The notes under the pieces: generated by a model
Database searches by the model: none
What the model was told of the DNA's origin: nothing
What the model saw: the letters and a program-made list of their open reading frames with translations, nothing else
Shown here: positions 3,001 through 63,350 of the stretch, piece after piece
Numbering within the stretch: position 1 is the stretch's first letter
How the letters are laid out: the number at the start of each line of letters is the position of its first letter
Position numbers and translations under genes: made by a program
Source: Phoronis australis
Taxonomy: Eukaryota > Animalia > Phoronida
Direction: 5' to 3'
DNA length: 64,000 nt
NCBI GenBank assembly: GCA_002633005.1
Contig: NMRA01000023.1
Span: forward strand, 829,339-893,338

Positions 3001-3814
3001 AAATAAAACAACACTCCAGACGATAGCTCTCGTTTGTTTTGCATCAGATCAGTTATCCTATATCTTCTCCAATTGCAAACACAATCCATGTGATCTACTG
3101 ACTGCGGGTAAGCGGAGTCTTGTTTTCTGTACAAGTTGCAGACATGCCAAGCTCGGGGAAAGATCCAGATGCAAACTACATGTAATTAACGTCGAGTATT
3201 GTTTGTAATCGTAAATGTTGTCCTCATTAGCTTGCCTGCCATTTCCTGCAAAGAGCTGGCCACTAATGTATTATCGACGGACAACGAGGCAAGTCATTCT
3301 CTTTCCTCGCTGCAACGTATCTCTGTGCGACTTGAAATCAACGACGGCGCTCGGCACTGACGAAGTCTGAGGTTGAGACCAACTCGACACAAATCGGGTT
3401 TCACGGAGTGAAGAGACGCCGGCTAAACAAACTGTGATGAATGAACGTTTTTAACAGGAGATCGATAACTCGAGGAAACGCAGTGGTATAAATATATATA
3501 AACATACATACACACGTGCGAATTCACAGAATTATAAACGCATCACATGAAATTAACCTAGTCAAATGACGTGTGGAGTAGACGTGGAGACTTGTCGTAT
3601 TCGATAAAATTAAGGGTGTTTAACGTTTGGTATTGATGTTTTCTACATTGTGACTGAGACGAACTGTTCTCTGGGGGACAAGACTGTCGAGCGTTATCCA
3701 TTTTATATAAAATTTTACTCGACTTCATAGAGATGACCGTTTTCAAACACGCCCAGTTATCAAATTTAACGCATACAGATACCTCAGAGTAGCTACCTCA
3801 CTTACGACAACAAT

Positions 3815-4042
3815 ATTAGTAACAATGATTCTAATAATAGTGATAGTAATAATTATAATAATAATAGTACGGTAATAATAATAGTATCAATAATAATGAT
3901 GACGATGATGATGATGATGATGATGATGATGATGATGACGACGTTGACGATGATGACGATAATGATGATGACGATGACGATAGCGATGAAGATGATACTG
4001 ATGACGATAACGACGACGTCGACTATGATGTTGATGACGATG
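3815..4042. repeat. Compound trinucleotide microsatellite, (AAT)n grading into (GAT/GAC)n
   Basis: Directly visible taataatagt... then gatgatgat... runs; it generates the spurious poly-His and poly-Met ORFs at 3887-4084. Confidence 0.95.
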
Positions 4043-5694
4043 AATACAAAAGACGGCTTCGCATTTCTTATAGATATCCACTAAATAACTACAGGTGACC
4101 TAGTTAACGCATCATCGCATAACTCGTCTACCCGCACAAGTCGTCGCATCCTTTCGGTGGCGAAGGTAAGCCCTATACTGTAGATTCGCTCTCACCTAGA
4201 GATTCGCGTACATGTACAAGTCGCTGAAAAGTCATCCACTTGATCGCGCAATTGCGCTCAATCAAAAGGAACGCGACGTCGAAAAAAATAAAATTCTCTT
4301 AAAAATTTCCATAACTCAATCTTTATCACAAAATGTCCCCAATGAGAACCCTGACGAGCAACCTTCAGTTGAAACACATGTTGGTTTTATAATAAGGTAT
4401 AGTCGCCCGCATCCAGGAGCAGATGGATGAAGACTGAGTTCGGGGGAGCTAATGTCTTTCTTTCCATTCAAAACATACGGGCCTGTTATTCAATGATTTA
4501 CAGGACCGAGTATAAATTTGATTTATATGTATGCAGGCCCGAGACGCGTCACTTGAGTGCAGGGAGACATTTAAGAAAAAACGAAGTACGGGCTATGTAT
4601 TCCAGTGAGGCATTACCTGTTACACTTGGTAGAGTATAATTAAAAAGTTTCCGAAATTGATTTAAAAAACAATCTTGGCGACGGAAACTTGCACACTGAG
4701 GATACCTGACCTCCCTCTAAAACTTTACGGACGGATGCTCTATCCCGCCAGTACCGCATACTATCAAAATCGTCACTGGGAGCACCATCCTGAGAATGAT
4801 CGCTATAATTTAAATACAATTCAACAAAACCTGTCACGAAATGCATGTATCGCGCAAGCAGCCACCGAGACTTCCGGCCACCCAGACGATTTTCTCACGT
4901 GGCAGATCGTCGACCGACGACGGGCTGCTGCTCTACCGTGAGCACGTCGGACTAATTTTCACACAATGCCGCTCAGGCGATCCTGATGATTGAGTTCAAA
5001 CAAGTTACACGGTACATTTTTGTGGGACGTGGAATAGCGGTCACATATAAAAGATCAGAGGTTATACGTCGACGCTAATTCCGATAATATGATCGTCATT
5101 TGCGAGACGACGGAGCAGGGAACGTTGAAGTCGACCGACTAATAAAGTCGGCAGGTTATCATTGCAGGGCAGCCGGGCTATCAAACCGGTTGATATCCAA
5201 TCGGTGATCTTCAGCCTTCTTGCGATTGTGAAATCAGCCGGGAGACGGAATAATTGTAGAACTATATAGACTCTACGTTGCGACGATGTGTGTTAATGTC
5301 TAAACAATCGCTCGATATACTAACTCAGGCTGCTCCATCGAAACAGGAACCCCGATGTAAAATAGATATAGTTACCCGGAGTAAAAAACAAACTCCCGCA
5401 TCTTTAAAACAGCTCACTAGCCCGAAAATCAAGACCCTGACCGTGAAAACACTGGAAACCCGGGGATCGACAAGACACCACTCCCTCACTTTCTGTCAAA
5501 CATTGTTTGATGCAAAACAAATTTTCCTACTTTAAATAGTTCTTATATGTCGTTTTACTACAAGAGAGTTTGAGACAAATTTGGCGTACTATATTATTCT
5601 GCTGCTAAAGTACCGGTAGTCGCCTTATTGGCCAGTTTCACTTCTCCCTCAATCTTCAATCAACTGTTCTTCTTCCACGAGGTTGCGCATGGCG

Positions 5695-61996: not shown

Positions 61997-62869
61997 GTAT
62001 GCCTTCGAATGTGCCGTTTAGCAGTGCTGTACGCCTACATAAATGTATACATTGCTGACTATGCCTAGTGCACCAATACTTGATATCCACTGCCGCGATC
62101 GTCTCATCTCGGGGCCCATCACTCGTGAACTATTGACCACTGCATCAACCAGACTTCAAAGCTGATATACGTACACCTTTCACAGCTTTTCCCATTTTCT
62201 TTTTAAAGAGGCCTGGAACGCGATAACCAGACTAATTGCCCATTAAAACGGTTCTCTTTTACTGAATCGGATCTCAACGTGCTCACCAGGCACTTTTAGG
62301 GATTTTTTTGTAAAGATTTTTAATTTCTGTTGATTCCAAAGCATTTCGTTTAGTTTCAAATTTCAAAAAAACGATCTGTCAGCTCCTCATCACTTCCGTC
62401 AATTTTTCTCCCACAATGCAAAGCACGTCCACTCGTTTGGTACGGCAAGACATACATGTAGTACATTTCCCTGATATGTAAAACGTGACCTTTGACTTAA
62501 AGCAACTGACTGTGAGCGCATGCGCGGATTTATTATGAGTGGGAGGGAGATTAGAAACTCTGTACTAACCACAAAGTTTTTTCTTCGACCGTATTTCAAA
62601 ACTTGTGAATTTTGTGATTTTTCTTGACATTTCCTCACAGGAGAAAGTGAATTACTCTGTACTAGACGTTGCGTGATGGTACTTTCGTCTGGAATTGTTT
62701 AAAACGTATTTTGGCGAGCTTTCGCGCTCCATGCCTCAACATTATCAAGAAAACGTTAAGGAAACGAACAAAACGTCGCATCATTTTCCGATCGTGAAAT
62801 GTTTTTTACAGATCTGTACAACACTCAAACTTCAGAATAAGAATACGGTTGATTAGCTCAGTGATGGGT

Positions 62870-63350
62870 AAAATGCGTGCAGGTCTGGTTCTCTTCTTCT
62901 CTTCTTCTGGGTACAGAAAGTCGTCCCGCTGTGAACATGCTCCGTCATCGTGTCAGCACATGTTCGGAGTCGCCTTCTCCTAAACTGGTTGCCTTCTAAG
63001 GCTGATGAGCCCAGTCTGTCAGATTTTAATGTCCGATTTGTCCTTCTCATAGGTGACAGGAACAATGTTTTTACAGGGTAAGGGAGTTGGCCTTACCCTC
63101 AACCCTAGAATGACTTTAGGGAGTGTTTGGGGTGCATTTCGTCTCATCTCCACCTTACGAACTGCCCGGCATGGATAGCCCTGCCAGGAGTTTTTAAACT
63201 CACGCCGGTAAAGCTATAAAAGTGACGGAGGTTCACAAGCTGTACCGACACGACAAGGCATACATGTACACCCCAGGAACAGACTTCGCCCAAAAGACCA
63301 GACTAAACTACATGGCTGGAAATGCTGAAGAAGAAGAAGAAGAAGTAAAA
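62870..63350 (+). mobile_element. Possible RTE-related SINE or non-autonomous retroelement with (GAA)n tail
   Basis: Blocks GCCTTCTCCTAAACTGGTTGCC...GAGCCCAGTCTG and CCGGCATGGATAGCCCTGCCAGGAG...CACGACAAGG recall RTE 5' UTR sequence; (GAA)n at ~63327-63345; AGCTCAG(T/C)GAT on both flanks may be a decayed TSD. Confidence 0.45.

Follow-up and report, generated by a model that had tools for sequence, protein, structure and literature searches.

Abundance of the octamer

We analyzed 64,000 nucleotides from the phoronid Phoronis australis (contig NMRA01000023.1, positions 829,339 to 893,338 of the forward strand; GC content 41%), referred to here as the window, in which a single palindromic octamer, TACATGTA, recurs at high density:

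3177..63268, no strand (palindromic): field of TACATGTA octamers, 55 copies at 46 loci

An earlier note, made from the sequence alone, had reported more than 40 loci where about 2 were expected, and our counts bear this out. Markov models of order 1 to 3 predicted 1.4 to 3.1 copies and 200 dinucleotide shuffles yielded a mean of 1.5 and a maximum of 5 (overall about 1.5 to 3), an enrichment over chance of roughly 30-fold. The octamer was the top 8-mer of the window, a run of N aside, and the sole outlier among words of the form TA-x-TA (p 6e-59). Each of the other 15 palindromic 8-mers in which pyrimidine (Y) and purine (R) alternate occurred 0 to 7 times, the runner-up being TATATATA with 7. 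About 1.3% of TA sites in the window carry the octamer. Thirty-eight loci contained one CATGTA unit, seven contained two and one contained three, confirming the (TACATG)n runs described earlier. Clustering along the window was not significant (chi-square p 0.07-0.12). A tie to CpG-poor DNA was considered and rejected, as the CpG-poor block at 28001-40000 held 6 loci in 12 kb versus 40 in the remaining 52 kb. The CpG observed/expected ratio of that block is about 0.5, versus about 1.0 elsewhere, and it is likely a methylated gene body.

Two genes provide the host context:

9292..20389, minus strand: spliced PDZ-domain gene, with pieces at 20135-20389, 13610-13756 and 10757-12221 and a likely 3' untranslated region down to about 9292
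50240..61997, plus strand: exons of an astacin metalloprotease, with several octamers between them

As the earlier note had stated, no octamer fell within coding exons, yet this absence carries no weight because merely 0.94 copies are expected in the roughly 1,094 exonic bases, which were placed by eye. When one of the astacin exons was used as query for homologues, no match was obtained at E 1e-15.

A six-base gain at TA

Ten repeat pairs from self-BLAST were aligned, giving 6,916 columns with 357 substitutions and 47 insertions or deletions (indels); one pair repeating the same copies, two pairs of about 140 bases, and weaker or shorter alignments were left out. CATGTA at TA accounted for 5 of the 47 indels, and for 5 of the 7 that were six bases long, a rate of about one gain per 70 substitutions (0.014 per substitution). 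The empty state was TA in all seven comparisons available, two of them weak, and the filled state had TA at both ends. No strand is assigned to these seven sites:

53388..53395: CATGTA gained within a TTAA-flanked repeat; the other two copies, at 24230 and 45273, read TA
19511..19518: CATGTA gained within a repeat of very high copy number (about 18855-19662); the copy at 59618 reads TA
43740..43747: TACATGTA in an inverted repeat copy; partner has TA at 38360
43440..43447: TACATGTA plus one adjacent extra substitution; partner has TA at about 38672
56373..56380: TACATGTA, where 55873 reads TA; likely a pair of alleles, lying on either side of a single N
7278..7285: TACATGTA within a terminus of a CAGTGGCGGATCTA-type repeat; TA in the related end 22474-22445 (26/30 identical, E 0.012; weak)
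16377..16384: TACATGTA; three X3 contigs from related copies of the repeat are six letters shorter (loose-end consensus; weak)

The difference was a clean six bases at 53388, 19511, 43740 and 56373. All five pairs named in the earlier note hold, one of them inexactly: 43440 reads TA-CATGTA-CAT where its partner has TA-CCT, and one extra substitution is required. That note had taken the long form at 53388 to be derived, and it is, both other copies being short. The long form is also derived at 19511, where the summed depth of contigs from sample X1 was 90.6 at 19513 versus 12,876.6 at 19517 (single copy about 45.6); these sums are not copy numbers, and the contrast exceeds 100-fold. The six letters at 19511 were likewise missing in X5 and in 28-29 X6 reads at depth 160-184. 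X1 to X4 possibly represent the sample behind the window's own assembly, and X5 comes from another study. None of the five octamers was common to both copies of its pair, at a divergence of about 5%; an ancestral word with occasional loss would give mostly shared cases, so gains are favoured. These comparisons demonstrate that TACATGTA is a six-base gain at TA. Six-base gaps also found in X2 contigs over 14563-16415 and 16918-17867 were not counted as CATGTA.

The earlier note had treated 56373 and its partner as repeat copies, a label that probably does not apply. They lie in a 98%-identical tandem duplicate (55666-56098 and 56168-56606) around a single N at 56099. Such duplicates abutting a single N are likely alleles assembled side by side, in which case 56373/55873 would be a heterozygous site. 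A second near-identical tandem duplicate (51580-52046 and 52053-52519; 98-98.5%), which doubles an astacin exon, abuts a single N at 52052, and the doubled exon may be no real duplication.

Variation, runs and probable decay

Raw reads might have lacked the inserted bases, a possibility that the earlier note had raised. Contigs of X1, X2 and X3 cross motif sites in 9200-12052 without gaps, although these three perhaps derive from the source sample; X5 keeps the motif unchanged at 10196 and 10803. At the other two of its four covered loci, X5 differs by one unit each, and these unit changes make up 2 of its 6 indels, alongside 33 substitutions. The loci with variable or compound runs, again without assigned strand, are:

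9681..9700: three-unit run; X5 has one unit fewer
11175..11182: one unit; X5 has two (TACATG added)
12857..12904: compound array in which TA/TG spacers set off CATG units and a single CTG and a single CAG unit; pure-array contigs derived from elsewhere map here at about 30x single-copy depth

The depth of these pure-array contigs implies longer runs elsewhere in the genome. Single-base deletions from CATG would look like the CTG and CAG units of the compound array, and no pair shows gains of such units. Multi-unit loci (8 of 46, versus about 0.6 at random) are in clear excess. The one-mismatch neighbours of TACATGTA that differ by a transition numbered 36 versus 11.5 expected, all four being in excess, and the eight transversion neighbours 33 versus 26.3. 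This transition-rich halo suggests neutral decay, with a crude mean age of the word of 7% per site.

Target flanks and related words

Flanks were assessed on reconstructed empty sites, comprising 86 half-sites, with the compound array at 12857-12904 left out. T+3/A-3 was present in 41 of the 86 versus 25.7 expected (p 6e-4, one of 24 cells), and in 36 of 81 versus 23.0 (p 0.002) after removal of halves starting with CAT. A-3/T+3 is common to the consensus targets of Tc1, Tc3, Minos, Mos and Sleeping Beauty (SB) (PMC2577343). A further pair of words was about 2.5-fold enriched:

1628..63379, no strand assigned: TACAGTA/TACTGTA words, n=27 versus 10.8 expected

These are the commonest SB footprints (10.1101/659086, PMC7827188), and SB excision breaks are repaired by non-homologous end joining (PMC7827188). 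Going by their letters, the words possibly represent a second, SB-type footprint class.

Transposable elements in the window

Scans for terminal inverted repeats of the form TA-CA...TG-TA in the window returned chance-level matches or ones inside larger inverted repeats. A single near match to a Tc1-like end, at 7226, was not above chance (3 matches versus 3.99 expected). A TA-flanked miniature inverted-repeat transposable element (MITE) of 294 bases lies at 41622-41919, with a 20/20 terminal inverted repeat and GG...CC ends, which cannot give CATG. Other repeats were also seen. Three TTAA-flanked element copies with AGG...CCT ends (23333-25596, 43932-45598 and 53098-54207) have open reading frames (ORFs) without a Pfam match; TTAA flanks the first at 23333-23336 and 25593-25596, which fits the Kolobok label of the earlier note. 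A very high-copy repeat (18855-19662 and 58755-59763) begins with CAGTGGCGGATCTA and reaches a summed X1 depth of about 110,000 versus 45, with related ends at 7266, 7972, 16682, 22168 and 61457. An element family with long imperfect inverted repeats occupies 37209-37687, 41116-41255 and 47483-48192. Apart from these, a degenerate AAT/GAT/GAC triplet tract, one unit grading into the next, lies at 3857-4054.

Metagenome loci with arrays

In 3 of its 64 parts, a metagenome scan for three units gave 116 loci, with about 2,600 stretches estimated overall. The 116 loci, selected through the motif itself, contained another 151 loci of one or two units versus 5.7 expected in 248,333 bases. With one duplicate locus dropped, 112 of 260 motif loci had an RY-microsatellite context. 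Four of the contigs with TACATG arrays also carried a TA-flanked MITE ending in CAG or CAC:

L044, 200-387: TA-CAG...CTG-TA
L063, 5-503: TA-CAG...CTG-TA
L057, 3490-3623: TA-CAG...CTG-TA
L023, 3228-3374: TA-CAC...GTG-TA

The CAG-ended form thus occurs at 3 of the 116 loci, in organisms other than Phoronis and without a control set. L044 has eight further motif loci in 4.2 kb. In L017, L038, L050 and L063, TACCGGTA occurs two to three times beside the arrays, recalling the Phytophthora motifs M93/M94. CAGTA and CTGTA units beside the arrays were few (2 and 3, versus about 0.5 each), no more than CATTA (4). The T+3 bias in the metagenome (144/296 versus 90) was not used as support, being confounded by partial units.

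Discussion

The octamers are probably footprints left on excision by a cut-and-paste transposon that targets TA and belongs to the Tc1/mariner superfamily, one not found in the window. An element with CA...TG ends would insert at TA and duplicate it; on excision two terminal bases would stay on each flank, and a host that retains and joins both overhangs would create TA-CA-TG-TA. Tc1 excision is known to leave this footprint in Caenorhabditis elegans (Eide and Anderson 1988, cited in PMC3520976), where the breaks have non-complementary two-base 3' overhangs (PMC4490562), and joining both overhangs once filled gives TACATGTA. An alternative geometry with self-complementary four-base CATG overhangs would yield the same word more uniformly, and our data do not separate the two. 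Because Tc3 words are unenriched and TACATGTA is a minor product in worms, a footprint origin calls for a germline that keeps both overhangs nearly always or for an element with CATG overhangs; both of these we infer.

Each scar would place CATG beside each TA. As CATG agrees with TRTG, the half-site of Tc1, at 3 of 4 positions, existing scars would attract new hits and lengthen into (TACATG)n runs, to which slippage likely adds units once two exist. Re-hits, and slippage from two units onward, predict the same excess of multi-unit loci. If every copy makes many jumps in its lifetime, scars would be more numerous than the elements that survive. With the amphioxus mutation rate of 5.89e-9 (PMC12862219) as a stand-in, an assumed genome of 0.5 Gb and 0.014 gains for each substitution, a hand estimate comes to about 0.04 excisions in a haploid genome each generation; the rate is therefore not prohibitive, and a modest number of active copies would suffice.

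Several results weigh against footprints. Within the 64-kb window no TA-flanked CA...TG element occurred above chance, and the intact element with such ends that the earlier note had anticipated was absent. Pfam revealed no transposase family in 208 of the 219 window ORFs of at least 66 aa, nor in 10 pieces, returning just astacin, PDZ and weak sub-threshold matches (five ORFs, four of low complexity and one with N, were not scanned). No three-allele locus was seen among the matches listed for two stretches compared with contigs, which drop variants. Both X5 differences are changes in unit number at existing motifs, which slippage could also produce. The T+1/A-1 of the Tc1 target CAYATATRTG (PMC2577343, PMC9635669) is absent here (27 versus 24.3 expected). 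TACATGTA is itself a minority Tc1 product, representing 3 of 39 repair products when polq-1 worms were tested in a frame-selected assay and 2 in xpf-1 (PMC4490562, supplement 4), and is called rare in PMC3520976. Finally, TACATA/TATGTA, the two commonest Tc3 footprints (10.1101/659086), are not enriched in the window (38 versus 42.1 expected). The canonical Tc3 spectrum is hence missing, and partly for this reason membership among Tc1/mariner footprints is not established. Collectively, the footprint origin proposed in the earlier note gains from the derived gain at TA, the A-3/T+3 bias, variation between samples, a documented Tc1 product and the multi-unit excess; the maker, a transposase and a three-allele locus are what it lacks. 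The observation is solid, and the gained unit likely behaves as a Tc1 footprint does.

A host or domesticated enzyme might instead write CATGTA at TA directly, by a TA-specific nick or break with a fixed template or by copying TACATG units, with no element ever resident. The dominance of one product, unlike the varied Tc1 spectrum, would be explained, as would the absence of a maker in 64 kb despite 46 loci, the abundance of the same word in distant eukaryotes and the high rate of gain. We nonetheless consider this unlikely: no such enzyme was found in the window, the A-3/T+3 bias and TACAGTA/TACTGTA excess are what Tc1/mariner elements would leave, and the TA-flanked MITEs with CAG and CAC ends at metagenome loci with arrays, bearing in mind their foreign hosts and missing control, also point to transposons. 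We know of no enzyme that writes CATGTA at TA. A broader version appears slightly more doubtful, in which a six-base CATGTA mutator at TA, free of any resident transposon, is common to marine animals and oomycetes, acts about once per 70 substitutions, feeds itself into (TACATG)n microsatellites, and was the source of the Phytophthora motif AM-20 later adopted by a Myb factor.

Microsatellite-type slippage in alternating purine-pyrimidine DNA, with TA-only copies as deletions between two TAs, is very unlikely to have made the word. Its alternation of Y and R, the frequent RY-microsatellite context in the metagenome and the unit gains and losses in X5 are all in keeping with slippage. In the window, however, that context surrounds just 4 of 46 loci, the other alternating palindromes are scarce, and 38 of the 46 loci are single units, a pattern at odds with birth by copying an adjacent repeat tract; run growth may proceed in this way. 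Nor can slippage create CATG where the empty TA has none beside it, and the absence of shared octamers, together with the rarity of the long form at both 53388 and 19511, runs counter to deletion. Selection for a transcription-factor site of Irx or Myb type, as argued for Phytophthora motif-1/AM-20, draws on TACATGTA being named a preferred Irx site (PMC3520976) and on its binding by PsMyb37 (PMC11134190). We regard it as highly improbable as an origin, since the word turns up within repeats of no common family, each time gained as a complete six-base unit, and is not shared between copies. It also shows no significant clustering, a transition-rich halo and variation between samples; selection could keep some copies and does not explain how they arose. 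That the word stems from misassembly, or from TACACGTA/TACGCGTA through CpG decay, is largely refuted and scarcely credible. X1 to X4 may share the window's source, and TACACGTA/TACGTGTA is in excess (11 versus 2.1). Against this, X1 to X3 contigs cross the sites without gaps and X5, from the other study, retains two of them; the CpG neighbour is not alone among the four transition neighbours in excess, the CpG-poor block is not enriched in loci, and CpG decay alters letters, not length.

If the octamers are footprints, a single repair product sits on about 1.3% of TA sites and accounts for roughly one tenth of small indels in aligned pairs (5/47). They would allow past cut-and-paste activity to be counted and dated even after loss of the elements, and would show how transposon scars can found new microsatellites. 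So uniform a product would point to germline end-joining that differs from C. elegans, where polymerase-theta repair gives varied products. They would also confound motif discovery, given that in Phytophthora this word is regarded as the main effector-promoter motif.

Comparison with known systems

The Minos footprint is likewise a six-base gain, composed of TA and four terminal bases. It differs in those four bases, and a comparable footprint here would require a CATG-ended element, none of which was seen in the window. Tc3 and SB also leave TA-bounded scars from staggered cuts, and SB-type words are enriched here; Tc3-type words are not, and the main word retains bases of both ends. We found no published account of genome-wide scars of such kind and density, in a search that left most subscription papers outside. 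As a whole word, TACATGTA has been used in the literature on oomycetes and Magnaporthe. Phytophthora motif-1 (M93, AM-20; PMC3520976, PMC3597505, PMC11134190) is TACATGTA, non-coding and located upstream of 12,070 genes (PMC3520976), and is the same, very abundant word, but described as a transcription-factor site. Its listed neighbour TACCGGTA (M94; PMC3597505) has the same TA-x-x-TA layout. The Phytophthora authors rejected a Tc1 footprint origin on the grounds of abundance and conservation (PMC3520976), in passages that describe no indel test. A close likeness is to the C. elegans Tc1 footprint. There TACATGTA is one minor product among many, whereas here it is a single dominant word and the T+1/A-1 bias is absent; the two nonetheless share the same eight letters, the TA context, the six-base gain and the A-3/T+3 target bias.

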